Source of the DNA: Patescibacteria group bacterium
Lineage (GTDB): Bacteria > Patescibacteriota > Patescibacteriia > Patescibacteriales > UBA12465
DNA length: 64,000 nt
Direction of reading: 5' to 3'
Assembly (NCBI GenBank): GCA_041651195.1
Contig: JBAZJR010000003.1
Location: forward strand, 82,441 to 146,440
The notes under the pieces are model-generated. The model did no database searches and was not told where the DNA came from. It saw only the letters and a list, made by a program, of their open reading frames with translations. The position numbers were made by a program, and so were the translations under genes. This document shows, in pieces, positions 39,940-54,514 of this stretch; position 1 is the stretch's first letter; each line of letters begins with the position of its first letter.

Positions 39940-41739
39940 ATGGGCCAAGCAGAAGAGATAAAATCTAAGCTGGATATCGTGGAGGTGATCCGCGAATATG
40001 TGCCGGTCAAGGCGGTTGGCGCGAATTTTCAGGCGCTTTGTCCTTTCCATAACGAAAAGACGGCGTCTTTTGTCATTTCGCCGGAAAAGCAGATTTGGCA
40101 TTGTTTCGGCTGCGGCCGCGGCGGCGACGTTTTCGCTTTCGTGATGGAAAAAGAAGCTTTGGGTTTTATGGAAGCTTTGCGCCTCTTGGCGCCGAAAGCC
40201 GGCGTTGTCTTGAAGCATGAGAACCAGCAGGATTATTCCGAACGCAACCGCCTTTTGGATATCCTGGAACTGGCCGGCAAATATTATGCCCATCTCCTGG
40301 GGACGCCGACCGGGCAAGCCGCCCGCGCCTATCTGGCTCAGCGCGGCCTGACAACGGAAATCATCAATGATTGGCAGCTGGGCTATAGTCCGGATGCCTG
40401 GGATAATTTATATCAATTCTTGAAAGCCCGGCCTTTAAGCGGCAAGAAATATACGGATGAGGAAATTTTTGCCGCCGGACTAATTATCAAGAAAGAGGGC
40501 GGCCGCGGCTATTATGACCGTTTTCGCGATCGGATCATGTTTCCGATCTGGGACGCCAATAATAATATCATTGCTTTTACCGCCCGCGTTAACCCGGCCA
40601 AAGAGAAGACCGAGAAGATGGGTAAATACATCAACAGCCCTCAGACCAAAGTTTATGACAAGAGCCGCGCGCTCTTCGCCCTGAATAAGGCGAAAGCCGC
40701 TATCCGCGAGGCGGATCTAGCGATTGTCGTGGAGGGCCAGATGGACGCTATTGCCTGCCATCAGCATGATTTTAAGAATGTCGTGGCTTCTTCCGGCACG
40801 GCGCTCACGACCGAACAGGTAGCGCTCATCAAGCGTTTTACCAATAATGTCGCCTTGCTCTTCGATATGGACGCGGCCGGTCAATTAGCCGCGGATCGGG
40901 GTATCAAGGAAGTCCTGGCGCAAGAGATGAACCTAAAAATAATCGTCCTAGGTTCCGGCAAGGATCCGGATGAATGCCTGCGTAACGATCCGGACGATTT
41001 CCGGGCGGCCGTAGCGCAAGCTAAGCCGATGTTAGATTATTATTTTACCAAGATCAGCGCGGGCCTGGACCTAGAAGTACTGGATAATAAGCGTTCCGTC
41101 CGCGATCAGATGTTCGCGATGATCAACCTGGTAGCCAATAAGAGCGAGCAGGGCTATTGGCTGAAGAAGATCAGCGAGGATTTAAGCTTCTTTGAAGCTG
41201 ATATCCGGGAAGAATTCTTGAAGTGGCAGAGCAAGCACGGCGTATTAAAGGGCAAGGAAGCGGCTCCGGCCGAGAAAATTTTGGATCAAGCGCCGGAAAG
41301 CAGCCGCGAAGATAAGCTAGCCGAGCTCCTCTTAGCTCTCCTCGTCAAATTTCCGGAATTTATAAATTATAGTGTCAGCAACCTGGAGCCAGAATATCTT
41401 CCCGCTGATTTCGCCAGGTTTTACAAGGGTTTCATAATCTATTATAATAAGACTGCCGCCTTAGATTATGAGAATTTCCGGGCGTATCTGGCCGAGCAGG
41501 GAGGCGGCGACGAAAAATTATTGGATAAGCTGATCCTTTTAGGCGAAAAGGATTTTTATAATTTTGAGCAGCCGCAGATCAAGGCGGAAATCGTCGGGAT
41601 CATCAGTGAGCTGAAGAAATACGGCCGCAAAGCCCGGATCCAGAAGATCCAGCGCGCTATCGCCGCGGCGGAAAAGACAGGTCAGACAGCCGAGATTGAT
41701 CGGCTGATGAATGAATTGAAAGACTTAATGGTCCTATAA
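39940..41739 (+). CDS. dnaG: DNA primase
   Basis: CHC2 zinc finger [11 protein letters not shown]...[17 protein letters not shown] region ([14 protein letters not shown]). Confidence 0.93.
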
Positions 41740-41743
41740 TCTT

Positions 41744-43036
41744 ATGGCAAAAAAATTTTTAAAAAAAATTAAGAAGCATAGCGCGGCGCGTCCGGCCAAA
41801 GCGGTTGCTTCGAGCCGTCCAAAAAAGAGCCAGGGCAGTAAAACAGCTAAGGGCAAGCGGAAGAATAGCCAGAAGAATAAGACCCATCTGATCCGCGGCG
41901 TGAAGATCGCGCGCGCGCGCGAAGAGCGCCAGGCCGTCAAACCGACCGAGGAGCAGATCAGGAAACTGATCGATAAGGGAAGGTTGCGCGGTTTCGTGAC
42001 CGAAACCGAGCTCTTATACCTTTTCCCGGAAGTGGAAGAATATGTCTATGAATTTGATGTCTTTTTGGGCGATCTCCAGAAGAGCGGCGTCCGGATCATG
42101 GAAGACTCCGGCCGGATCTTGGATACGGCGGAGAAGAAAGCGCAGGAGCCGCCCCTGACCGGCAAGGCCCTCGCGCATCAGAACGCTCTGAACATCGACC
42201 TGTCGAAACTGAGCGCCGACTCCATTCAGATGTATCTGAAAGAGATCGGCAAGGTGCCGCTTTTAAGCGGCGATGAAGAAGTCGAGCTTGCCAAGCGCAA
42301 AGAGAAGGGCGACAAGGAGGCGGAGCGGCGGATTATTGAAGCTAATCTGCGCCTAGTCGTTTCGATCGCTAAGAAATTCGCCGGCGCCAAAGGCATGAGT
42401 CTCTTAGACCTGATCCAGGAAGGGAATATCGGCTTGTTCCGGGCCGTTGAGAAGTTCGAATACCGCAAAGGCTTTAAGTTCTCTACCTACGCGACCTGGT
42501 GGATCCGCCAGGCGATCACCCGCGCTTTAGCCGACCAGTCGCGGACTATCCGTATTCCGGTCCATATGGTGGAAAATATCAATAAATTCCAGCAGGTCCA
42601 GCGCAATCTGATCCAAGAGTTGGGCCGCGAGCCTTTAGCCGAAGAGATCGCCTCAGAGATGGGCGAGCCCTTAGAAAAGGTCCGCTATATCATGAAGATT
42701 TCCCAGGACACGATTTCTTTAGAGACGACGATCGGCGATGACGGCGAAGACTCTACCCTGGAAGACTTTATCGAGGATGTGAAGAACGTGACGCCGGATC
42801 GCGCTGCCGCCCTGCAGCTCCTGAGAGATTATGTGAAGAATATCGTCGCCCAGCTCTCGCCGCGCGAACAGAAGATTCTGGAGATGCGCTTCGGGCTGGT
42901 AGATGGCGTCGCCCATACCTTAGAAGAAGTCGGCCAGGAATTCGAGGTCACCCGCGAGCGTATCCGCCAGATCGAGTCCAAGGCCTTGGAGAAGATACGG
43001 AAGTTCAAGGGTTTGGAGAAATTGAGGGATTACTAA
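41744..43036 (+). CDS. rpoD: RNA polymerase sigma-70 factor RpoD
   Basis: Region 2 [37 protein letters not shown], regions 3 and 4 present. Basic N-terminal tail. Confidence 0.95.
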
Positions 43037-43037
43037 T

Positions 43038-44054
43038 ATGAAGCCGACGGTAGTCTTTTCCAAACATTATACCCGAGATACCTCTCTCATTATCCAACAA
43101 TTCTGGCTGGAGAGTCTGAGCCAGGGCGTCAGGAGATTAGGTATCAATATTAGGCAGCCAGTAGGAGTTGATTTTGTAAATAACGGCGTCATTGAAATCT
43201 GGGAGGACCGAATAACTATCCGACAGATCAAATCAGGATTAGTAGATTTTTGCCGACAAGAGCCGCAGCAGGCCCTTGCTTTATTAAAGAGATATCAGGC
43301 GGGGCTCAAAGACTTGCAATCTGTCTGGCGCCGCGGCTATCTGGAAAATTTAAATACTTTTAATCAATATTTAGCCGAGGTCAGGAGCTTAGTAATCGGC
43401 GATCTGTTTATTGCTTTCATGGGTCCGGAGGAACGTGTAAAAGGTAGAGTTAAGGCAGTCGCCCTGCGTCTGAGGAGCGAGGACCATTTCTTTGCTTATA
43501 ATAATCGAGTAATGATGGCAACTTTGCACCGTCTCTTCCCGCATTTGAAATCTTATGTGAATGTTTTGCGCCTTGAAGATCTTGATAAGCCACCGACATT
43601 AGCCGAGTGCCGCCGCCGTTTCCAGAAATTCATCTCAGCGCCGGACGGTTACCATAAGATCCAGAGCCTAGCTGCTTATGCTCGGAGCCGCGGCTATATC
43701 CTAGCTAAAGATGAACCGGAAAGAATAAAAGGCGGATTGCTTGGCCGTACGGCGATGCCAGGACAGGCTAAGGGTCGGGCCAAATTAGTATTTTCTGTTC
43801 GGGATTCTTTCAAAGTCAGGCGCGGAGACATCATTATTTCCCCGATGACTACGCCTGAGATGTTACTGGCTATGAAGAAGGCGGCAGCGATAGTGACGGA
43901 TGAGGGTGGCGTTATCTGCCATGCGGCGATAGTCGCCAGGGAGATGAAGAAACCCTGCCTGATAGCGACCAGGACTGCGACTAAGGTCTTTAAAGATAAT
44001 GAACTGATCATGGTCGATGCCGGAGCCGGGACAGTCCGGAGGGTCGGTAAATAG
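43038..44054 (+). CDS. PEP-utilising-enzyme mobile (phosphohistidine) domain protein
   Basis: C-terminal about 100 aa: GRAKLVFSV...RGDIIISPMTTPEMLLAMKKAAAIVTDEGGVICHAAIVAREMKKPCLI matches PEP-utilisers swivel domain with catalytic His. N-terminal about 220 aa unknown. Confidence 0.65.
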   Translation: MKPTVVFSKHYTRDTSLIIQQFWLESLSQGVRRLGINIRQPVGVDFVNNGVIEIWEDRITIRQIKSGLVDFCRQEPQQALALLKRYQAGLKDLQSVWRRGYLENLNTFNQYLAEVRSLVIGDLFIAFMGPEERVKGRVKAVALRLRSEDHFFAYNNRVMMATLHRLFPHLKSYVNVLRLEDLDKPPTLAECRRRFQKFISAPDGYHKIQSLAAYARSRGYILAKDEPERIKGGLLGRTAMPGQAKGRAKLVFSVRDSFKVRRGDIIISPMTTPEMLLAMKKAAAIVTDEGGVICHAAIVAREMKKPCLIATRTATKVFKDNELIMVDAGAGTVRRVGK

Positions 44055-44194: not shown

Positions 44195-44266
44195 TCCCGG
44201 GTAGCGCAGCGGTAGCGCAGTTGGCTGTTAACCAATTGGTCGTCGGTTCGAATCCGACCCCGGGAG
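44195..44266 (+). tRNA. tRNA-Asn (anticodon GUU)
   Basis: Cloverleaf folded by hand: acceptor TCCCGGG/CCCGGGA, D-stem GCGC with GG loop, anticodon stem GTTGG/CCAAT with loop CTGTTAA (anticodon GTT), T-arm GTCGG-TTCGAAT-CCGAC, discriminator G. Confidence 0.9.
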
Positions 44267-44267
44267 C
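44247..44267 (+). repeat. attL core: 3' end of tRNA-Asn, direct repeat of 51422-51442
   Basis: 21-nt TTCGAATCCGACCCCGGGAGC identical at both sites. Confidence 0.85.
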
Positions 44268-44276
44268 ATAGAAAAG

Positions 44277-44304
44277 ACGAGAGTAAAATCTCGTTTTTTC
44301 TTTT
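44277..44304 (+). terminator. tRNA terminator hairpin
   Basis: ACGAGA-GTAAAA-TCTCGT followed by TTTTTT. Lies between tRNA end and integrase stop codon. Confidence 0.5.
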
Positions 44305-44306
44305 GT

Positions 44307-45449
44307 TCACGGGCGTATTTCTCGTTTTGACCAATCGGAATTTTGAACCCCCAAATTCTCGATTGTGACGCTATTGTGCCGTAAGTTTATAACTTGTGGC
44401 GTTTCTAACACTTTTATTGCGTCTCTTAAAGTGTGTTGTCCTAAATGCGCATAACGCATAGTCGTTCTAATGTCCGAGTGACCCATTAACTCTTTTATAG
44501 CGGTCATAGAGACCCCTTTCTCGGCTAATCGGGAGGCAAAGGTATGTCTGAGCTTATGCCAACCGATTTGGCGTAATTTTGCCTTATCACAAATCATGTG
44601 AATATTTGTCCGAGAGCATTCCGGTCGAAATCTTAATCCGTCCGGGCCTTTCAAAACAAAACCCTCTTTCGGCGATAAAGCGATTAGGTGATTATACAGG
44701 TCTTGCGTCATGGGAATATATCTAATCTTATTGCCTTTAGTCGAGCCTAAAACTCCGACCGAGAAATTGTCTTTGACTATAACTTGCTTTTTAAGGAAAT
44801 CAATCTTTTCCCAATTTAAGGCCATGAGTTCGCCGATACGCATTCCGGTATGTAGAGCCAAGAGAATCGCTGTCTTATAAGGCTCGGAAGCGGTCGCCAG
44901 TAAGCGATTAGCCTCTTCCTCGTTTAAGTAATCAAACTCTTCCGGGTCAGAGCGCAGAGGTCGAATTATTGGCACTTTATCTAGTTCGCCCCATTCGACA
45001 GCCGTTTTAAGACATTTCGCTAAAGTTCCCATTTGGCCGTTAATAGTTTTAGGCTTTAACCTTTTTAATTGCAGAGCTTTAAACTCTTCAATATCGAGGC
45101 TAGAAATCTCGTCTAATCTTTTTTTGCCGAAGAACGGCAAGAGGCATGATCTTAGATAAGTCTTTTTATTCTTAATTTCCGAGGGCTTATTATTAACTTC
45201 GACATACGACTTAACCCATTTTTCGGAAAATTCTTTGAGGGTTAAACATTTCCTTTTTTCTTTCGGAAATAAATCTTCGCCCCTGGTTAGCCGTTGCCTT
45301 AAAACCGCTTCATAAAATTGAGCCCCGGATCGAGTATTGGTTGGACTCGGTAGGCGGTATCTTCGCGCCTTAAAGCTGAAGTCCACCCACCATTTATTTG
45401 CACGCTTGATTGCACTCATAAATAATTTACTTAAATTTTTAAGGAGCAA
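44307..45449 (-). CDS. tyrosine-type site-specific integrase (phage integrase family)
   Basis: C-terminal catalytic box HTGMRIGEL...HKLRHTFASRL...GHSDIRTTMRYAHL (R..H..R..Y). 3' end abuts tRNA-Asn. Alternative start at Met11 (45419). Confidence 0.9.
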   Translation of the reverse strand: MLLKNLSKLFMSAIKRANKWWVDFSFKARRYRLPSPTNTRSGAQFYEAVLRQRLTRGEDLFPKEKRKCLTLKEFSEKWVKSYVEVNNKPSEIKNKKTYLRSCLLPFFGKKRLDEISSLDIEEFKALQLKRLKPKTINGQMGTLAKCLKTAVEWGELDKVPIIRPLRSDPEEFDYLNEEEANRLLATASEPYKTAILLALHTGMRIGELMALNWEKIDFLKKQVIVKDNFSVGVLGSTKGNKIRYIPMTQDLYNHLIALSPKEGFVLKGPDGLRFRPECSRTNIHMICDKAKLRQIGWHKLRHTFASRLAEKGVSMTAIKELMGHSDIRTTMRYAHLGQHTLRDAIKVLETPQVINLRHNSVTIENLGVQNSDWSKREIRP

Positions 45450-45598
45450 TACAAGAGCGCGGGGGTTCGCGTCAATTATTATTACTTTATCACAGGCTCT
45501 TAATTGCTGTCTATTTTAGGAATTATCTTGAAAATAGACACTTTGGTTCTTAAGTGTGCATATAATCAAGTTAATGATGTATATATTATTAAATTAGG

Positions 45599-45632
45599 AT
45601 TAGACCTTGCTTAGCCAAGCGTTAGGTCTAAT
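45599..45632. repeat. hairpin (8-bp stem ATTAGACC/GGTCTAAT)
   Basis: Inverted repeat in int-cargo intergenic region. Confidence 0.4.
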
Positions 45633-45644
45633 GTTTATCCGATC

Positions 45645-45701
45645 GCGTTTTTCTTTTTTCGGCTCGCTAGCAGAGCTCGCCGAAAAAAAGAAAAAAAGCG
45701 C
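45645..45701. repeat. long imperfect palindrome (bidirectional terminator-like)
   Basis: GCGTTTTTCTTTTTTCGGC...GCCGAAAAAAAGAAAAAAAGCGC arms around a GC core, symmetric A/T runs. Confidence 0.5.
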
Positions 45702-45726
45702 GTGCCGGAATAAACTATTAATAATC

Positions 45727-46010
45727 TAACCGATTGGGCTTGACCAAAATCTACGTAAAGATTTAGGTCAAGAAATTAGCCTTATTATTTCTAATCCTAG
45801 CAAATCAAAGTTACCGAAAGTTACGGGTAAAATTTAGGGTAAGAAAACGAGCTTATTTAATCTAATATTAAACAATCGAACTTTGACCATCTTCGGTCGA
45901 AAGAACGGTCAAAGAATTAGCTGTATTCTATTTGATGTTAGCAAAACAGGTTTGGATAAAATTTGGCTAAAGGTTTGGTCTAAGTTTTTTAATAAAAATC
46001 CAATAAAATT
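45727..46010 (+). repeat. four degenerate ~70-bp tandem repeats, each a hairpin followed by GGTCAAG-AAATTAGC-like box
   Basis: Units start about 45727, 45796, 45867, 45941. Recurring TTGACC...GGTCAAG(A)AATTAGC..TATT..TCTAAT/GTTAGCAAAA elements. Followed by strong hairpin AAACGTAAAT-GCACGTGCAG-ATTTACGTTT (46017-46046). Confidence 0.45.
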
Positions 46011-46225
46011 CTACAATATTAAAATAAACGTAAATGCACGTGCAGATTTACGTTTAGTTTTTAGGCTTATTTTTGATCTAATTTTTTTGACTTTTGAGAT
46101 CCTGGGTGGTATATTTTAAGTATATTTTTAGTGTTATCAGGGGCATGTCAATGCCTATTTCGAGGGATTAGTTCTAATTGGTTTGTTGATCGAAATAAAA
46201 TTAGCAAAAAGAATTCTTAAATTAT

Positions 46226-47758
46226 ATGAAAAAACAAACACTATCAAATGAGGCAACCGTAGTGAAGGCTTTAAAAGTCAATCAATGGCTTGATGTTTGG
46301 AAATCGGTTGATTTTGCTAAAAAAAATCATCGCAGAGAACCTGAAAAATGTTTTTACATTTTTTCATTATCTGCCAGACAGTTGCGCTCTTTGTCTGGAG
46401 TAAATCGTAGAGACGTAAAAGATGGGGTAAAAAGATCTCGCGATTTAGGAATACAGCGAGCTCATGAGCAATCTCGTTCTAGGAATATTGCTGAGTATAT
46501 TAAATATGGTTACCCATGGTCAGATTTAAGTAAATCTCAACGTGAAGATATTAGATTTAATGATCTCCGCAAACCAGGTTGGTTGCCAACTGCTATTGTG
46601 GTAAATATATTAACAAAAGATGACAGACGTAATGGGTTAGGTGTTGCGTCAAAGGATTTAATAACTATAAATAATAATGATAATAATGAATTTGTAGAAA
46701 TTAAAATACCAATGTCAAAGAGTAATAAGAAGTGGATCTCTGAGCAGGTTTTACCCCTAGAAGTTATTGATGGCCAACATAGATTACTGGCCTTTGATGA
46801 AAATATCGATGAAGATTATGAATTGCCGGTTGTTGCTTTTTATGGTTTAGATTTGAGCTGGCAAGCATATTTATTTTGGACTATAAATATAAAACCAAAA
46901 AGAATTAATCCCAGTCTTGCTTTTGATTTATATCCTCTTTTACGCACTGAAGATTGGTTAGATAGATTTGAAGGACATAAAGTTTATCGAGAAGCAAGGG
47001 CTCAAGAAATAGTAGAATCACTATGGTCTGAACCAATGAGTGCTTGGTATCATCGTATAAATATGTTAGGAGAAAGCGGGATTGCTTCCGTCACTCAGGC
47101 AGCCTGGATAAGAGCATTACTAAAAACATATATTAAAACTTCCGAAGGTAGAGGGGTAACTATAGGGGGTTTATTTGGGGCTCCGGCTGGTCACGATGAA
47201 ATGACTATACCTTGGAATCGTAGTCAACAGACCGCTTTATTAATTTATCTTTGGAATTCCATAGAAAAATTTACTAAAGAAACGTCGGCACTATGGACAA
47301 AAAAAATAAGAGCAACTGAATACAAACGTAAAATAAAAGGTGATCCAGCATTTTCTGGGCCGCATACACTTTTAAATAATGATCAAGGTATTTCAGTTGT
47401 TCTTAATATTTCAAATGACCTATTATTTTTAAATGCGGAAACGCTACAGCTTAAAAAATGGCGAGTTAGTCAAGAGTTTGGAGTATCAGAGGCCCTTGAA
47501 GATTTAATTAAAAAACAAAAAGATATTATTTTGTTTGTGAATAAAATTGCAAAAGCATTTACAACTTTTGACTGGAGATCTTCTGGGGCGGAAAAACTTA
47601 CAGACTCCGAAAGAACTCTTAAACTTTCATTTCGCGGCGGTAGCGGCTACAGAGAGTTTAGACGATTATTGCTTAAACATTTAATGAAAAATAGCGATTT
47701 AGCCGCCGACGCAAAGACAATTTTCAATAATCTTGGATTTGAGGAAGACTCTAATTGA
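46226..47758 (+). CDS. DGQHR-domain protein (DndB-like, ParB/Srx-fold superfamily)
   Basis: Exact DGQHR motif at residues 182-186 (nt 46769-46783) in context PLEVIDGQHRLLAF. 510 aa. First gene of island cargo operon. Confidence 0.65.
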   Translation: MKKQTLSNEATVVKALKVNQWLDVWKSVDFAKKNHRREPEKCFYIFSLSARQLRSLSGVNRRDVKDGVKRSRDLGIQRAHEQSRSRNIAEYIKYGYPWSDLSKSQREDIRFNDLRKPGWLPTAIVVNILTKDDRRNGLGVASKDLITINNNDNNEFVEIKIPMSKSNKKWISEQVLPLEVIDGQHRLLAFDENIDEDYELPVVAFYGLDLSWQAYLFWTINIKPKRINPSLAFDLYPLLRTEDWLDRFEGHKVYREARAQEIVESLWSEPMSAWYHRINMLGESGIASVTQAAWIRALLKTYIKTSEGRGVTIGGLFGAPAGHDEMTIPWNRSQQTALLIYLWNSIEKFTKETSALWTKKIRATEYKRKIKGDPAFSGPHTLLNNDQGISVVLNISNDLLFLNAETLQLKKWRVSQEFGVSEALEDLIKKQKDIILFVNKIAKAFTTFDWRSSGAEKLTDSERTLKLSFRGGSGYREFRRLLLKHLMKNSDLAADAKTIFNNLGFEEDSN

Positions 47759-47773
47759 TATATATACAACATA

Positions 47774-49141
47774 ATGGCCATAAATCCGCTTAAAGAATCT
47801 CTAAGAAATGCTTCTCGTGACTCTATTAAAGAGGCGATTAAAAATCTTCGTCCTCATTTTTTGTCTGGGCAATGGATTGGAACAGGTAATATTTATGCTA
47901 AATATTATAAAACGAATGCCTATAAAGATCTTCTTACGCGACGTTCTAGTTTAAAAGATAAACAAATTAAGGATTATATCGCGGCATCTGTTTTTAACCA
48001 TTGTGGCGATGGTTGGAGTCTGCTTGGACGAGCGCTTAGTCTACATATTAAGGGGGATGGTAATAGCTCTATTCATCTTGCTTATTATGCTGAACTAAGA
48101 GCAGCGATGTCTTTACTCGCATCTGAAGGTATCGGTGTTTTTAACAACCGACATGTTATTGTAAAAGATGGGGCTGTTGATCTTACTCCAAGTCTCAAGA
48201 GAAAAAATCGTAGTCTAGGAAGGACACATCAATTTGTTTGGATGGCCCTAGAACATTGGACAGATAGAAGATTATCAGCGGATACATTGGCTAATATCAT
48301 TTGTCCTGGATCAATTACTCTTTTTGAATGGTTAGATGCTTTCGGTGTTGCCAATAACATTCATCCAATTGGTAGCAAGTGGATGAGGTTATGGGGCATT
48401 GATATTAAACAATTCGGTGACGACCAAATATTACGAAATTATTCCAGTTATAGACCATCTAGAATACTTCCAAAATCAAATACAACCGCCCCACATTCGC
48501 TTGCTTTTTTTAGCGAACTTTGGCGTATGTGTGAGCCAAGCCCGTCATCCAGATTTAATGAAATTGATAAACATCTTTTAAGATCTAGTTTGTCACAAGC
48601 GTATAAGGCGGTATATGGTATAGAGCCTCACACGTCGACAAATCTAGATGATTATAGGGCTTGGATTGAAAAAAAAATTATAACTCTCAACTTCTCAGCG
48701 CCAGTACAAAAAGAATGGGTTAATTTTCTTACATGGGCCATACAGCCAGATGACTCAAAAATTATTGAGGAAGCGGGTAAGTTTACTTCTGTTGATGATC
48801 CAAGCCATCATTTACAAGTACTCGCAAGAGCTACACTTTTATTAAGAATTTCTACTGGTATTAACGCAAAGTTACTTAAGGAGGCCGGTTTTACAAAAAA
48901 AGATTTAGAATTTTGGTGGGGACCGTATGCTGTCGATAATGGAATAATTAAAAATGCTGGCGCTATATCTAATTTTTTAGATCTTTGGGATGATGTTAAT
49001 ATAGCTCTTCAAGATATAATGGTTTGGGAAAAATCACAAAGTAAAAATTATACTTATAGCGATTTAGTAATGGATATCTCTAAGCCAATTTTAAGATTAA
49101 GTGAGTGTGAGCGAATATCTCTGTGGGGTCTAGGAATATGA
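47774..49141 (+). CDS. hypothetical protein (455 aa), partner of DGQHR protein
   Basis: 15 nt after previous stop. Stop overlaps next start (ATGA at 49138-49141). No motif recognised. Confidence 0.5.
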   Translation: MAINPLKESLRNASRDSIKEAIKNLRPHFLSGQWIGTGNIYAKYYKTNAYKDLLTRRSSLKDKQIKDYIAASVFNHCGDGWSLLGRALSLHIKGDGNSSIHLAYYAELRAAMSLLASEGIGVFNNRHVIVKDGAVDLTPSLKRKNRSLGRTHQFVWMALEHWTDRRLSADTLANIICPGSITLFEWLDAFGVANNIHPIGSKWMRLWGIDIKQFGDDQILRNYSSYRPSRILPKSNTTAPHSLAFFSELWRMCEPSPSSRFNEIDKHLLRSSLSQAYKAVYGIEPHTSTNLDDYRAWIEKKIITLNFSAPVQKEWVNFLTWAIQPDDSKIIEEAGKFTSVDDPSHHLQVLARATLLLRISTGINAKLLKEAGFTKKDLEFWWGPYAVDNGIIKNAGAISNFLDLWDDVNIALQDIMVWEKSQSKNYTYSDLVMDISKPILRLSECERISLWGLGI

Positions 49142-50337
49142 AATACATGGGTTCAAAACGTTTTATGTTAAACAATGGGCTCGGGGATTTACTCCGCGAG
49201 CAGCTTCCTCGTGCAAATAGATTTATCGATCCATTTTGTGGCTCTGGAGGTATAATAAATTTTGTGGCTACAGATCAAAATTTTAAAGGAGAAATTATCG
49301 CTGGTGATCTGCAAAAATATGCTGTCGTCCTAGCTAAAGCCGTGATTGGACGAACTGAAATATTTGATGTTGAATATTTAAAAAATATTTGGATAGAAGA
49401 AGCAAAAAAAGGCTTAAATTCTTCAAAATTTTTAAATAGAATTGATGAAATCGATAAAAAATATCATAACGATATTAAACTAAGAGTAAAAAAAGCGAGA
49501 AAGCTTTGCGAATCTCCATCTCAAATCGGTCCTATTTGGAATGCCTATGGCGGCCACTATTTTAGTCCAAAGCAAGCGCTGGTACTCGACTATCTTTTAA
49601 AAACATTACCCAAACAAACTAAATACAGAAATGTTTGTTTGGCTGCTATAATTATTGCTGCCTCGAGAGCCGCCGCTTCTCCTGGCCACACCGCGCAACC
49701 TTTTCAGCCAACAAAAGGAGCTGGAAAATTTATTGAAATTTCATGGCACATAGATATTTTTAAATCTTGTGAAACTGCCCTAAAAGAGATCTCTATTTTA
49801 TATGCCAAGATAAAAGGAAAAGCGGTTGTTTCTGATGCAAAAAAGCTTATATCAAAATTAAAAAAGGGAGATCTGGTCCTTCTTGACCCACCTTATTCAG
49901 GCGTACAATATAGTCGCTTTTACCATGTACTTGAAACAATCGCCCGTGGTTATTGTGGAGAGATAACAGGGATTGGGCGTTATCCGGCTATTTCTGAACG
50001 TCCACAATCAGAATTTAGCAACGCAGGACAATCTCTTAAAGCGCTAGAACAGCTTTTGTCAGATTTATCAAAAAAAGAAGCTACGGTTATTTTTACTTTT
50101 CCCAAGGGTAGATGTAGTAATGGCTTGTCAGGAGATAAAGTTATTGAATTAGCAAGTAAATATTTTAATCTAGATAAAAATAAAAGCCGAATTCATGAGC
50201 ATGTTATTACAGGTAGATTTAGCACTCTGGGTGGCAACAATAAGCTTAATAAAAATAATCATGAAAAAAAGTCAAGGGTAAAGTCAGAAGAACTAGTATT
50301 ACTTTTAAAACCAAAAACTATTCAGCATAAAAAATAA
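49138..50337 (+). CDS. Dam-family (D12 class) N6-adenine DNA methyltransferase with C-terminal extension
   Basis: N-terminal KYMGSKRFML (cf. Dam KWAGGKRQLL), AdoMet motif I FIDPFCGSGGI, catalytic DPPY (LLDPPYSG, nt 49885-49896). ATG 49138 preferred over the track's upstream GTG at 49123. Confidence 0.7.
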   Translation: MKYMGSKRFMLNNGLGDLLREQLPRANRFIDPFCGSGGIINFVATDQNFKGEIIAGDLQKYAVVLAKAVIGRTEIFDVEYLKNIWIEEAKKGLNSSKFLNRIDEIDKKYHNDIKLRVKKARKLCESPSQIGPIWNAYGGHYFSPKQALVLDYLLKTLPKQTKYRNVCLAAIIIAASRAAASPGHTAQPFQPTKGAGKFIEISWHIDIFKSCETALKEISILYAKIKGKAVVSDAKKLISKLKKGDLVLLDPPYSGVQYSRFYHVLETIARGYCGEITGIGRYPAISERPQSEFSNAGQSLKALEQLLSDLSKKEATVIFTFPKGRCSNGLSGDKVIELASKYFNLDKNKSRIHEHVITGRFSTLGGNNKLNKNNHEKKSRVKSEELVLLLKPKTIQHKK

Positions 50338-50342
50338 AATTT

Positions 50343-51221
50343 ATGCATCAAGGAAAAAAGATTACAATTTATTTAGCTGCCGGTCTTCCGAAAGGAATAA
50401 GGGAAATAAGAATTGATCAATGGAGCGGTAAAGCCATTTGTGGTCCGCGCAATGCTTTAAGTGAGATTATCTCCTTGCCAGAAACAGAAAATGGAGCATG
50501 TGTTTATTTCTTAATAGGAAATTCTGATGAAGGTGGGTTGCTCGCTGTATATGTCGGGGAGGCTGACGGTTTTAAGGAGAGAATAAGAGATCATGATTAT
50601 AAAAAAGATTGGTGGCAGGATGTTGTTGTTTTTGTAAGTCAGGATGGATCGCTAACTAAGACAGGTATCCAGTATCTTGAGAGCGTTTGTATTGAACGCC
50701 TAATAAAAATTGGGAAATGCAATCTTAAGAACATCAATAAACCGAGCATGCCAACTATTCCAAAAGAAGATATAAGCGGTTTGGAGGTGTTTTATGAAAA
50801 TTTAGGAATTATAATGCCGTTACTCGGGTATGATATATTCGTTCAAGCAGAACTAATATCTGGAAAAGTGCTGGACGCCTCATCTGTTTTTACATGCAAA
50901 AAAGGAACAAATGTTATTGCTACTGGGCATCTTTTGGAAGATGGAAAAATGAAAGTTTTAAAATTATCTACGGCTTCATTAGAAGAAACTCCATCTTTTC
51001 AAACGCATCCTTACAAAAAACTTAGAGAAGAGCTTATTGCCATGAAACGAATTATTGCTCATGGGCCTGTTCTTATTTTTACCGATGATTATGTTTTTGA
51101 TAGCTCAAGCGCTGCCTGCGGAGTAATATTTGGGAGATCTGCCTCCGGTCCGTTGGAGTGGAAAAATAGCGATGGAGCTTCCCTTAAAGAGACTCTAAAT
51201 TCGAAATTGAAAGCTGAATAA
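50343..51221 (+). CDS. GIY-YIG-like nuclease domain protein with unknown C-terminal domain
   Basis: GACVYFLIG-(11 aa)-VYVGEADGFKERIRDH followed by conserved-position Glu (LESVCIERL) and Asn (KNINKP), matching GIY..YIG..R..H..E..N spacing. 292 aa. Confidence 0.55.
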   Translation: MHQGKKITIYLAAGLPKGIREIRIDQWSGKAICGPRNALSEIISLPETENGACVYFLIGNSDEGGLLAVYVGEADGFKERIRDHDYKKDWWQDVVVFVSQDGSLTKTGIQYLESVCIERLIKIGKCNLKNINKPSMPTIPKEDISGLEVFYENLGIIMPLLGYDIFVQAELISGKVLDASSVFTCKKGTNVIATGHLLEDGKMKVLKLSTASLEETPSFQTHPYKKLREELIAMKRIIAHGPVLIFTDDYVFDSSSAACGVIFGRSASGPLEWKNSDGASLKETLNSKLKAE

Positions 51222-51421
51222 CTATTTATAAAATAAACACGATTCTACCACCTCCTCTTGTATTGCTAGCGAAACAAAAAGTTGTGACGCTATTGTGACT
51301 GAAAAGTGGTAAAATCGTGATATTTCGGACTAAAACTGGTTAATCAAAAAAGTTAAAATATTCTCTAATGCTAGTAAAAATTTGCTAACATTAAATCATA
51401 TATAAAAATCTCGATTTTGTT

Positions 51422-51442
51422 TTCGAATCCGACCCCGGGAGC
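51422..51442 (+). repeat. attR core: direct repeat of tRNA-Asn 3' end
   Basis: TTCGAATCCGACCCCGGGAGC identical to 44247-44267. Followed by hairpin plus T-run (51455-51480). Confidence 0.85.
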
Positions 51443-51586
51443 TTAGGACAATGACGCCAATCTTGGCGTTATTCTTTTGTAATCAGAGCCAGCATCCGGA
51501 TTTAGTCAGCGGTTTATGGTTATTAAAAATTTACAGAATAGTATGAAATGTGCTATTTTAGTTTTATAAACTAAAATTATAAATTT

Positions 51587-52795
51587 ATGTCTTTTGGATG
51601 GCCGACCCCGTCGTCTGATAATTCGATAAGTAAAGCTGAAGGCGAAAAATTTATTGAAAGTGATAAAAAAAAGTTTGGAAGGAAAGGATATTCTGAGGAG
51701 CGGAATATTTATGAGCAGAGGCGTCAGGCCGTGGAAAATTATTTGATTGACCCGGAAAATTTAAAAATGGTAGAGACTGAGTTTGGCTCAGCCAAGGTCC
51801 GGACGGTTATCGCGCGTTGGGATGCTCCCGAAGATCTTAGGGAAGTCGGAGCCAAACCAGATACCTTGCGGATTACCATATATGTTCCGGGGATGTTTGA
51901 ATGTGATAAGCCTAATTTTGGTAACTATCCTCTAGAAATAAAATTAGCCGGTACGATGCTAATGGGTGATGCCGAATCTTTCGTGGTTTTAAAGGCTGAA
52001 GGTTTGAATAAGGAGGCCTATATTGACGATGGCGGACAGGGACGAGGACAAGGTTTGGTGGCGGAAGAAGCCGTCAAGCAACTGGAGAAGTCATTACAAG
52101 CAATGAAACAAAAGATGGGGCTAGGAGAAGAAGCTAAAATAGAATTTGAGGTCGTTGGATCCTCTGAGGGCAGTACTCAGGGAGCGAGTATCGCCGAGAA
52201 AATAGTTGAGCGCAATTTAGGCAAGGTTAATGCTTTTACCTCAATTGGTGGAGTGGGCTTAGCTGGCGGAGAGGATCAAACAGAAGTCGCTGTTATTAAT
52301 CAACTGAGAGCGAAGATAGATCCCAAAAATGAATATCAAATGCCAAAAACTTATTCGGAAGTCGGAGAGGATACTTTTTTAATAAATCGTCAGATGATCG
52401 GCGACGCTAAGCAGGGCGGGTATGAATATTCTTTAGGCAAAGCTTATGTTGATCCTAAAGGTGATATTAGGAATGTCGCTAAGTGGGGTTGGAGATATTT
52501 AAAAAGTAAATTGGGTCTGGCCGAAGAAGTCCCTCACGAACGGGTGCAGGCGGTTTTTATTAAAAATCATGACTTTGATAAGTTAGCTACGAATGGGGTT
52601 CCAATTGTGGTTTTAGCTGGCTCCGAGGATAGAATATTCCCGGCGGCCGAGATTCAAAAAGGAGTTGAAGATTTGCGGTCACGGGGAGGCAAAGCATTGT
52701 TATTAATTACCAATATGGGACACAGCTTTCCGCACGAGAACCCATCAGGCGCCGCTATGGCCTTAAGATTATTTAGAAATAAAGCTGGAATATAG
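51587..52795 (+). CDS. hypothetical protein with alpha/beta-hydrolase-like C-terminal half
   Basis: GSSEG nucleophile-elbow-like (GxSxG) in VVGSSEGSTQG, downstream Asp (GSEDRIFP) and near-C-terminal His (GHSFPHE). AT-rich composition like the island. Confidence 0.45.
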   Translation: MSFGWPTPSSDNSISKAEGEKFIESDKKKFGRKGYSEERNIYEQRRQAVENYLIDPENLKMVETEFGSAKVRTVIARWDAPEDLREVGAKPDTLRITIYVPGMFECDKPNFGNYPLEIKLAGTMLMGDAESFVVLKAEGLNKEAYIDDGGQGRGQGLVAEEAVKQLEKSLQAMKQKMGLGEEAKIEFEVVGSSEGSTQGASIAEKIVERNLGKVNAFTSIGGVGLAGGEDQTEVAVINQLRAKIDPKNEYQMPKTYSEVGEDTFLINRQMIGDAKQGGYEYSLGKAYVDPKGDIRNVAKWGWRYLKSKLGLAEEVPHERVQAVFIKNHDFDKLATNGVPIVVLAGSEDRIFPAAEIQKGVEDLRSRGGKALLLITNMGHSFPHENPSGAAMALRLFRNKAGI

Positions 52796-52986
52796 TTTTT
52801 ACAATTTTTTTTATTTTTTTATTGAGTGCGAGCGTATAATTTATTTATCTGATTTTGGTATATATGTTCTATTATGAGTAGTCATAAAATAGATTCGTGC
52901 TTCCTTTATCACGCCGAGTTATAAAAAAGAGGCTATAATCAGTAGCCTCTTTTATCTTATCATGTTTTGTAGATTAACTATGGCAA

Positions 52987-53253
52987 TTATAGAGACAGCC
53001 AAGCAGTATATGCAGAATTAAGATTTTTGGCTTCATCTGCGCTAATGTCTAAATTTTCAAAATTTTCAAAACCCTTGTTTTTCATTTCTGTAACTAAAGA
53101 ATCAATCTCACTCCCAATGCCATTTTGATCGAAATTTACTGAGTCTCCCGACCTGTCGAATTCTGCGGCTATTCTAGCCGCTAGCCCTTTTGCCGTCATG
53201 GCTAGCTGTTCTTTACTTGTCTTATTCATTTCGAAAGATTTTTCACCTATCAT
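52987..53253 (-). CDS. hypothetical small protein
   Basis: 88 aa minus-strand ORF in AT-rich region. Confidence 0.3.
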   Translation of the reverse strand: MIGEKSFEMNKTSKEQLAMTAKGLAARIAAEFDRSGDSVNFDQNGIGSEIDSLVTEMKNKGFENFENLDISADEAKNLNSAYTAWLSL

Positions 53254-53489
53254 ATACTTATTGTTTAATAATAGCTTATATTTATTATATCACTAGTAAA
53301 TAAATAAACAAGAGGGGCTTTAATTGACAAATATTACTATATGTGATAAATTATCCTAATTCCTAACGACTGGAATTATGTGGTAAAGAAAAATACCATG
53401 AAAGGCATGTAGCCAACAAAATCCGTTCTCTGGCGACGGTCGCTAGATAGTCCCCCATGGTGCTGGGACAATAAACTGCACATTAAAAA

Positions 53490-54362
53490 ATGAAAAATTT
53501 AATTAATTTTTTCGTGAATTTTATTGGCGGTTTTAATAAAATCGTCAAATCTTTTTTCGGGGGTAAGAAAAAAAATATTGTCGGATCAGATATTGATCAG
53601 GTTGATCCCCAGTTAGCCCCGGAAAAATCCGCGGCAGATCCCGATATCGATCCTGATCAAGATAAATTCAATCACGCATTGGCGCAGAAAATAATGGCTG
53701 CGATTAAGAACGGGGCTGACGCTGCCGACGCGGAATATCTGGTCGATAAAGAAGACGCCCGGCTTTTCCATAGCGCGCGCGATCTTCGGCTCAAAATCCG
53801 GATCCTCAACGCCTTCCAAGACGGGAAAAAAAGTAAGGACAAATTAGTTTTTGCCGCCTCGCTGCCGCATGGCTTGGGCACAAGTTTAAAGGATGAAATG
53901 CTTGCCACCTTCCAGGAATTAATCGATGTCTATGGGAATAATACCCATGAATTATCGGTGGTAAAGTCGGCAGCCAGCGATTTCCGTGATTTAGAGGCGC
54001 CTATATTAGAATTCTTATTCCGCCATTTATACCGTAAATATAGCTGGAAATTCGTTAGGCAGGTCGTCAGAGTCAGCACTTGTCCGAACCCGGATTTTCT
54101 CATTTTTCGTTTAAGGACCGAAATTTGTCTGCATTTGCCGCTGGTGATAGCCTTGGTATGCTTAGATGGCATAAGCAGCCCAATCGGCGACAGTAAAATG
54201 CCGTTAATTATGGATTTCGAGGATAGATATGATTTCAGCCTGGAAAAAGACGGAGGATTTACCTGGGAAGAGATATGGCCGGGGATCAAGGCCGTATTCA
54301 ATAATTACTTCCTGGGGGGAGTAGATTTTATCATAGACTGCCAGGCGGTAAATAACGACTGA
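53490..54362 (+). CDS. hypothetical protein
   Basis: 290 aa ORF, AT-rich. No motif. Confidence 0.4.
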   Translation: MKNLINFFVNFIGGFNKIVKSFFGGKKKNIVGSDIDQVDPQLAPEKSAADPDIDPDQDKFNHALAQKIMAAIKNGADAADAEYLVDKEDARLFHSARDLRLKIRILNAFQDGKKSKDKLVFAASLPHGLGTSLKDEMLATFQELIDVYGNNTHELSVVKSAASDFRDLEAPILEFLFRHLYRKYSWKFVRQVVRVSTCPNPDFLIFRLRTEICLHLPLVIALVCLDGISSPIGDSKMPLIMDFEDRYDFSLEKDGGFTWEEIWPGIKAVFNNYFLGGVDFIIDCQAVNND

Positions 54363-54514
54363 TGGCCTAAGAACTTAAGCGGTGTTCATTTAACGCCGCT
54401 TTTTAATTGAGATTGGCGATCCGGATATAGTATAGTATACTAGGAAAGCTGGCGGAGACTTTTAGGCAGGTAGCCGCTAGGGAAACGGACAGAGCTAAAA
54501 TAATTTTTAAAACA

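Follow-up and report, generated by a model that had tools for sequence, protein, structure and literature searches.

What does a small genomic island do for its host when its entire cargo consists of four closely packed genes, only two of which fit an already predicted type of restriction-modification (R-M) pair? We address this question for a Patescibacteria group bacterium (assembly GCA_041651195.1, contig JBAZJR010000003.1), in a stretch of 64,000 nucleotides to which we refer as the window. Genes A to D (Table 1) are the sole cargo of a 7.2-kilobase (kb) tRNA island with an integrase (window positions 44247-51446), and an earlier inspection of the letters alone (the sequence-only reading) had taken them for a candidate four-gene defence module with an obligatory-looking coupling. 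The host is a metagenome-assembled genome, and NCBI records of the Patescibacteria contain 100% matches to A, B and D. Comparison with related loci reveals that the constant element is a pair, A (a DGQHR-domain protein) and B (its all-alpha partner), which is joined by an exchangeable DNA-modification gene, and that D is an accessory. We lean towards the view that the island is an R-M-like defence cassette based on methylation-dependent discrimination between self and non-self, in which A-B would be a sensor/effector responding to modification status and D an add-on cutter.

Relatives were collected by a profile search with B, which contributed 80 loci from species-representative genomes and as many again from metagenomes, and further loci came from targeted look-ups; single loci are cited by number (L002 and so on). 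Counts over 103 loci refer to those with at least 3 kb of upstream and at least 1.4 kb of downstream flank. A lies directly upstream of B in 102 of these 103 loci, the sole exception being a frameshifted A. The A-B loci span at least 15 bacterial phyla and one archaeon (Methanoregula), and their carriers are found among the Patescibacteria, Ignavibacteria, Acidobacteriota, Planctomycetota, Chloroflexota, Nitrospinota, Verrucomicrobiota, Elusimicrobia, Cyanobacteria, Actinomycetota, Armatimonadota, Alpha- and Gammaproteobacteria, Desulfobacterota, Binatia and Poribacteria. The B family comprises 1,228 clusters at 50% identity, all of about 450 amino acids, and the pairwise distances of A and B are correlated (r=0.76). 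No homologue of B occurs in 50,697 phage records, and a census of 120 flanking open reading frames (ORFs) revealed no conserved neighbour besides A, B and the modification gene. The order A-B-C recurs in 70 of the 103 loci, across phyla, so that the linkage proposed from the window is indeed a conserved one; the four-gene arrangement is more than chance, the same order being found in many unrelated genomes. Some copies have decayed: in L038, insertions of about 1.7-4.8 kb interrupt both A and C, L077 has a frameshift in A, and L088 has an intact A-B-C followed by a D truncated to 67 amino acids.

The gene that varies is the one for DNA modification. A D12 methylase of the C type directly follows B in those 70 loci, usually with overlapping stop and start codons, and a true Dam-family methylase (TIGR00571, 229-239 bits) stands up- or downstream of A-B in 18 of the 103. 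Other partners are N6_N4 (L037, L106), MT-A70 (L056, L106) and an N6_Mtase fusion (L043), and in cyanobacteria A-B is found beside dnd_assoc_4 and dndC/D/E (L002, L016, L019, L021). Because these partner types are intermingled in the tree of A-B, the modification gene must have been exchanged many times, and R-M-like systems would be expected to combine a constant effector with an exchangeable modifier in this way. In the Pseudanabaena locus (L002:5991-17208), A-B follows dnd_assoc_4 in a neighbourhood with dndC, dndD, dndE, two AAA_16 genes and an SNF2 helicase; a canonical dndB is missing, and A may fill the role of DndB at this locus. In Candidatus Binatus soli and related contigs (L022, L151, L153), an intact A-B lies between adenosine kinase and PBP genes, and either the methylase is encoded elsewhere in the genome or A-B is able to exist without one.

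The residence of cyanobacterial A-B inside a dnd cluster without canonical dndB raises another explanation, the main rival, namely that A-B controls or assists the modification enzyme, regulating its transcription or activity, or its loading onto DNA, in the manner of DndB and DpdB. Restriction would then be exerted only by add-on nucleases (D, or the BglII-like enzymes described below), and a cassette without a nuclease would serve mobile elements for epigenetic or anti-restriction purposes. The translational coupling of B and C would suit such a role, but A-B is found with no fewer than five modification enzymes that are unrelated to one another, and this speaks against a dedicated protein contact or operator. 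Some 965 amino acids of highly conserved protein would also be much for the regulation of methylases that act alone elsewhere, and more than 90% of the loci are without another nuclease, yet the trio is maintained and is spreading on mobile elements. We regard a control module as conceivable but rather improbable.

The domain identities of the pair were assessed against PADLOC v2 (2023 release), Pfam (2025) and NCBIfam (June 2026). The DGQHR motif that had been read at residues 182-186 of A is exact, and A belongs, as proposed, with the DGQHR/DndB-like proteins: it passes the cut-offs of the NCBIfam DGQHR domain (TIGR03187, 76.4 bits against 58.85) and of Pfam DndB (39.4 bits against 29.1). 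The signature motifs of the DGQHR family are a QR pair, the DGQHR pentapeptide and FxxxN (PMC4619093); in A they are Q77-R78, D182-G-Q-H-R186 and F217...N221, invariant or at least 97% conserved among homologues, and A has the ParB/Srx fold of that domain family. More specialized models do not fit, in that TIGR04172 (DNA phosphorothioation-associated DGQHR protein 1) reaches 65.4 bits against a cut-off of 450, the DpdB model NF041060 reaches 25.1 bits against 300, and TIGR03233 (NCBIfam DndB) does not match A. Binding of ATP and GTP in vitro has been observed for a DndB-like protein. The parallel with DndB and DpdB, and with the DUF262 domains found in SspE, GmrSD and BrxU, leads us to expect that A binds nucleoside triphosphate (NTP) and DNA.

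B, for which the sequence-only reading had no recognisable motif to offer, likewise has no match in Pfam, NCBIfam, PADLOC, PHROGs or PDB sequences; it is still a protein with no profile model, although a putative HEPN-like core can now be proposed for it. This core consists of four helices in a confident all-alpha structure model (predicted local distance difference test score, pLDDT, 90.8), for which a Foldseek search of the PDB returned nothing at E<=0.001. The canonical HEPN motif Rx4-6H is missing from B; a comparable invariant motif, R221-N222-x-x-S225-Y226, has Y instead of H, and nuclease activity of B is therefore not implied. A divergent pair found at L172 (3596-5820) and at the P0379 locus bears on the extent of the family. 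It precedes close homologues of C-D (69% and 65% identity) and begins with a DGQHR protein of 456 amino acids (hhalign probability 92% to A). The second protein, of 285 amino acids in L172 (B'), has in the same order as B the motifs YY..R..LLG.F.N, (T/E)HxxxW and RNxxxY; the alignment of the B profile with B' by hhalign is not significant (E 0.05), and the case for homology is one of collinear motifs judged by eye. Going by these motifs, the shorter protein may be a 'mini-B' made of the HEPN-like core. The divergent loci suggest free recombination between DGQHR-plus-partner and methylase(-plus-nuclease) modules, and a family that extends beyond what the B profile detects.

For C, the predicted class holds and the predicted family does not. 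Its match to Pfam PF02086 (MethyltransfD12) is well above threshold (57.4 bits, cut-off 22), PADLOC MTase_II is matched at 6.5e-20, and the motifs K2-M4-G5-S6-K7, D31/F33/G35 (FxGxG) and D250-P-P-Y253 (DPPY) are at least 97% conserved among homologues, all of which points to a D12-class enzyme producing N6-methyladenine (m6A). It had also been placed in the Dam family, but TIGR00571 reaches only 32.6 bits against a cut-off of 114.85 and covers the N-terminal part only, and a distinct, true Dam-family enzyme takes the place of C in about 17% of loci. Among A to D, single-sequence and profile searches of PDB sequences found nothing informative beyond a weak N-terminal similarity of C to T4 Dam and DpnM. 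The reading frame of C is also open from a GTG at 49123, five codons upstream of the ATG at 49138; homologues align from the ATG, and hence C overlaps B by ATGA, an overlap of B stop and C start that is found in the window and in most loci. The four co-directional ORFs and their spacing (gaps of 15, -4 and +5 nucleotides, with the ATGA at 49138-49141) can be read from the letters just as had been reported. GATC occurs in the window at 1.15 times its expected frequency, without avoidance, a value that is uninformative on the target of C.

Gene D matches the PADLOC candidate PDC-S14 (PDLC04925) over its full length (residues 1-285, 6.9e-81) and phrog_12629 (2.8e-55), and bears the NCBI name 'GIY-YIG nuclease family protein'. 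Pfam PF01541 gives nothing at E<=1 for D, and the homologues P0470 and L124 stay below its threshold at E 0.07-0.08. Residues Y55, Y70-x-G72-E73, R80, H84, E113 and N130 are invariant in five homologues down to 31% identity and form a GIY-YIG pattern, with an R-to-H spacing of 4, as in I-TevI; D thus remains, as first proposed, a predicted GIY-YIG-type nuclease. Its C-terminal part, previously listed as unknown, is DUF4357 (5.6e-16, 58.7 bits, cut-off 38.4) and RAMA-like: RAMA (PF18755) is not matched by D itself, and in the homologues P0416, P0407, P0470 and L124 it overlaps DUF4357 at E 6e-6 to 1.5e-4 (22-27 bits, below the cut-off of 35.2). RAMA, a domain that putatively discriminates m6A, occurs in fusion with restriction nucleases, URI(GIY-YIG) and ParB among them, and has been predicted in N6A-modifying R-M systems (PMC4738411). 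As m6A discrimination by RAMA in restriction nucleases is thus already predicted, C+D represents an R-M pair of an already predicted type.

The four genes could accordingly be read as such an ordinary type II pair (GIY-YIG/URI nuclease with a RAMA-like reader, and m6A methylase) lying by chance beside unrelated A and B, the more so as D-family proteins also occur alone. Two of the six D homologues sampled, at 58 and 57% identity, do lie elsewhere, one by a type III R-M system and one by a YoeB toxin-antitoxin pair, but the other four abut A-B-C: those at 80, 73 and 65% identity directly 3' of it, and one at 51% identity directly 5' of A and overlapping it. D follows C in L085, L086, L169, L172 and the P0379 locus and precedes A in L124/L171, and A-B-C-D or D-A-B-C with overlapping reading frames is found in at least eight independent loci. 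A minimum of 11 additional D homologues come from contigs equal in length to contigs with matches to A or B. Together with the A-B-C order in other phyla, these contexts effectively refute a chance juxtaposition. From the B side, D is present in only about 5% of loci (L085, L086, L061 and L124, with the 67-amino-acid stub in L088), and it is missing from the closest Pacebacteria relative, L084, although C of that locus is 80% identical. D is therefore a real and recurrent accessory of a sub-clade, found in two orientations and outside the universal core; of the obligatory-looking four-gene unit first envisaged, what stands is A-B with a DNA-modification gene.

Nucleases of other families have joined the pair as well. 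BglII-family restriction endonucleases are encoded directly upstream of A-B(-methylase) on the same strand at L014:5810-6403, L047:4838-5449 and L080:5554-6198 (Pfam Endonuc-BglII, 1e-12 to 3e-34), three loci that represent three phyla and both C-type and Dam-type methylases; a Mrr_cat protein occurs in L031. BglII and BstYI sites contain GATC, and the BglII-family enzymes could hint at the target of the methylase. Among the neighbours are defence genes (GmrSD-HNH at the P0379 locus, HEPN_AbiU2 in L171) and genes of mobile elements (serine recombinases in L084-L086, a TniB/Mu transposase in L168). L167 is the Zymomonas mobilis plasmid pZZM405 (NC_013788.1, 4808-8470), where a DGQHR protein, a hypothetical protein and a Dam methylase are encoded about 2 kb from DUF4433 and macro-domain genes (DarTG-like). 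The methylome of strain ZM4 lists only CAGN4CTG, GAAGN7TCC and GANTC and leaves the cluster unmentioned (PMC8432527); carriage of pZZM405 being uncertain, we did not use it as evidence. Identical Zymomonas plasmids are present in strains CP4 and NRRL B-12526, and other cultured carriers are Rhizobium tumorigenes (pRt932) and genomes of Bradyrhizobium, Mesorhizobium, Sphingomonas and Herbiconiux.

That the trio resides on plasmids and beside recombinases and transposases, and that the genes in the window are the sole cargo of an integrase island, would also suit a cassette that is mainly an addiction (post-segregational killing) module, whose loss would be followed by loss of methylation and by attack from long-lived A-B (and D), with defence as a by-product. 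Classical type II R-M systems behave as addiction modules. Many copies of the cassette, however, are chromosomal and sit amid housekeeping genes with no mobility gene nearby, and addiction would require the same molecular mechanism as the defence cassette that we favour, with which it is compatible. As the main function of the cassette, addiction seems to us unlikely.

An invariant pair, interchangeable modifiers, recruited nucleases, mobile residence and occasional defence neighbours are together the reason for favouring a self/non-self cassette. The comparison shows the arrangement of the genes, their conservation, the domains of their products and the exchange of modifiers; what we infer beyond this (a defence function, the sensing of methylation, and which protein cuts what) would run as follows. 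C would methylate a short adenine-containing site on resident DNA and so mark it as self; A, gated by nucleotide binding, would engage DNA and tell unmodified incoming molecules from modified ones; and B, which co-evolves with A and whose gene overlaps the start of C, would be the effector or adaptor that converts this discrimination into restriction or growth arrest. In the sub-variant of the window, D would add a conventional DNA-cleaving arm, and C, through adenine methylation, is expected to determine the activity of this arm.

Several observations weigh against this account. The two DGQHR proteins that have been characterised act on modification and not on restriction, DndB as a repressor of phosphorothioation and DpdB as an ATPase for preQ0 insertion, and B has RNxxxY instead of the canonical HEPN motif; these two points, and more generally the lack of a recognisable canonical nuclease active site in A or B, count in favour of the control module considered above. 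A and B are highly conserved and show no obvious hypervariable target-recognition segment, despite methylases of different families. The flanking genes are mostly housekeeping genes and not defence genes, and A-B occurs with no adjoining modification gene in L022/L151/L153, L126 and L007.

A more far-reaching version of the sensor/effector proposal, which we put forward tentatively and consider doubtful, is that A-B is indifferent to the maker of the mark, since it occurs with four m6A methylase classes as well as with phosphorothioation. A, as a ParB-like, NTP-gated scanner of DNA, would then license B, as a non-canonical HEPN-like effector with its RNxxxY motif, on unmarked DNA, and the pair would represent a third route of modification-based immunity besides classical restriction endonucleases and BREX-type systems.

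How far the cassette differs from known systems can be judged by its components. DGQHR proteins were previously known near dnd, and the likeness to Dnd lies in the ParB-like DGQHR domain of A, with Pfam DndB passed, and in those A-B pairs that adjoin dnd_assoc_4 and dndCDE; the island, however, is without dndA/C/D/E, its modification is predicted to be m6A, and B has no counterpart in dnd. With Dpd it shares a DGQHR ParB-like ATPase (DpdB) encoded beside a DNA-modification enzyme, but DpdA (TGT) and DpdC are absent from the island and the partner genes are others. SspE, DndI, GmrSD and BrxU likewise combine a ParB/Srx-fold NTPase domain and a DGQ(H/Q)R motif with modification-based immunity, but they are single polypeptides with an HNH/DUF1524 nuclease, whereas A has none and is paired with the separate, putatively HEPN-like B; moreover, these proteins sense modified DNA, and the present cassette carries its own methylase. 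Type II GIY-YIG R-M systems and RAMA nucleases (PMC4738411) resemble C with D, an m6A methylase with a GIY-YIG/URI nuclease bearing a DUF4357/RAMA-like domain, but the methylase is mostly tied to A-B and not to D, and the D family is listed as stand-alone (PADLOC PDC-S14). BREX, DISARM and MADS also embed a methylase in an operon with non-canonical partners, presumably for marking self against non-self; they have no component in common with the cassette, which has three core genes only and whose A and B match none of their PADLOC models. In the window, the calls of PADLOC v2 would be limited to D (PDC-S14) and a type II methylase. We found no description of the A-B-methylase trio in the open-access literature or in PADLOC v2 (2023 release), which agrees with the earlier view that the arrangement is not a described one. 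What is new is the undescribed candidate effector pair A-B; modification-based immunity in general is already known.

The island has the features of integration at a tRNA gene, namely the tRNA, an adjoining integrase, a direct repeat of the tRNA 3' end and a deviant composition (GC content 0.32-0.40 within the island against about 0.5 in the flanks), so that its description as an integrase-bearing tRNA island with A-D as sole cargo is upheld (Table 1).

Table 1. Coordinates of the cassette genes and of the other features of the island in the window
Feature	Position	Strand	Details
Gene A, DGQHR-domain protein, 510 amino acids	46226..47758	+	N-terminal ParB/Srx fold, C-terminal helical domain
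Gene B, obligate partner of A, all-alpha, 455 amino acids	47774..49141	+	Putative HEPN-like four-helix core, invariant R221-N222-x-x-S225-Y226
Gene C, predicted D12-class N6-adenine DNA methyltransferase, 399 amino acids	49138..50337	+	Start overlaps stop of B (ATGA)
Gene D, predicted GIY-YIG-type nuclease with C-terminal DUF4357 (RAMA-like), accessory, 292 amino acids	50343..51221	+	
tRNA-Asn (GTT), integration target of the island	44195..44267	+	ARAGORN; Rfam tRNA 71.5 bits
attL, left copy of 25-nucleotide direct repeat (tRNA 3' end)	44247..44271	.	Repeat search, 24/25 against 51422-51446
Tyrosine integrase	44307..45449	-	Pfam Phage_integrase 2.1e-31 and Phage_int_SAM_3
AT-rich non-coding spacer, 776 nucleotides, integrase to gene A	45450..46225	.	
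attR, right copy of 25-nucleotide direct repeat, island end	51422..51446	.	

The spacer upstream of A contains a promoter-like site at 46087-46115 (TTGACT-17-TATATT with TG), three repeats at 45766, 45837 and 45907 (about 70 nucleotides apart), and a hairpin with 21-nucleotide arms at 45648-45694. A palindrome, AATAAACGTAAAT-N10-ATTTACGTTTAGT, with 13-nucleotide arms and a 10-nucleotide spacer, is found at 46021-46060, just 5' of the promoter-like site. The repeats, hairpin and palindrome could be integrase arm sites or an operator. Read as an operator, the palindrome would lend support to the control module; however, it is not kept in relatives, the spacer elements in general show no conservation upstream of A there, and palindromes of the window, L085 and L020 include none common to them.

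As for the surroundings, low GC (0.35-0.45) extends past attR over window positions 51447-54400, a stretch that may be an older, decayed island at the same tRNA; its ORFs lie at 51587-52795 (weak alpha/beta-hydrolase matches), 52987-53253 (minus strand) and 53490-54362. The island sits just downstream of a housekeeping block (39940-44054), whose ORFs, as judged by eye from the translations only, encode a DnaG primase-like protein of 599 amino acids (39940-41739), a sigma-70-like protein of 430 amino acids (41744-43036) and a third protein of 338 amino acids (43038-44054).

Should the A-B-methylase combination be a defence system, it would be widespread, occurring in at least 15 phyla, in bacteria of the candidate phyla radiation, in an archaeon and on plasmids; current annotation overlooks it, there being no model of B in Pfam, NCBIfam or PADLOC. 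DGQHR proteins, whose known part has so far been to aid DNA modification, would gain a role on the restriction side, and the HEPN-like proteins would gain a member that lacks the canonical catalytic motif. As there are cultured and genetically tractable carriers (Zymomonas mobilis plasmids, Rhizobium tumorigenes and Bradyrhizobium), direct laboratory tests are possible. More broadly, the exchange of methylases and phosphorothioation around a constant A-B may show how self-marking and effector modules combine.

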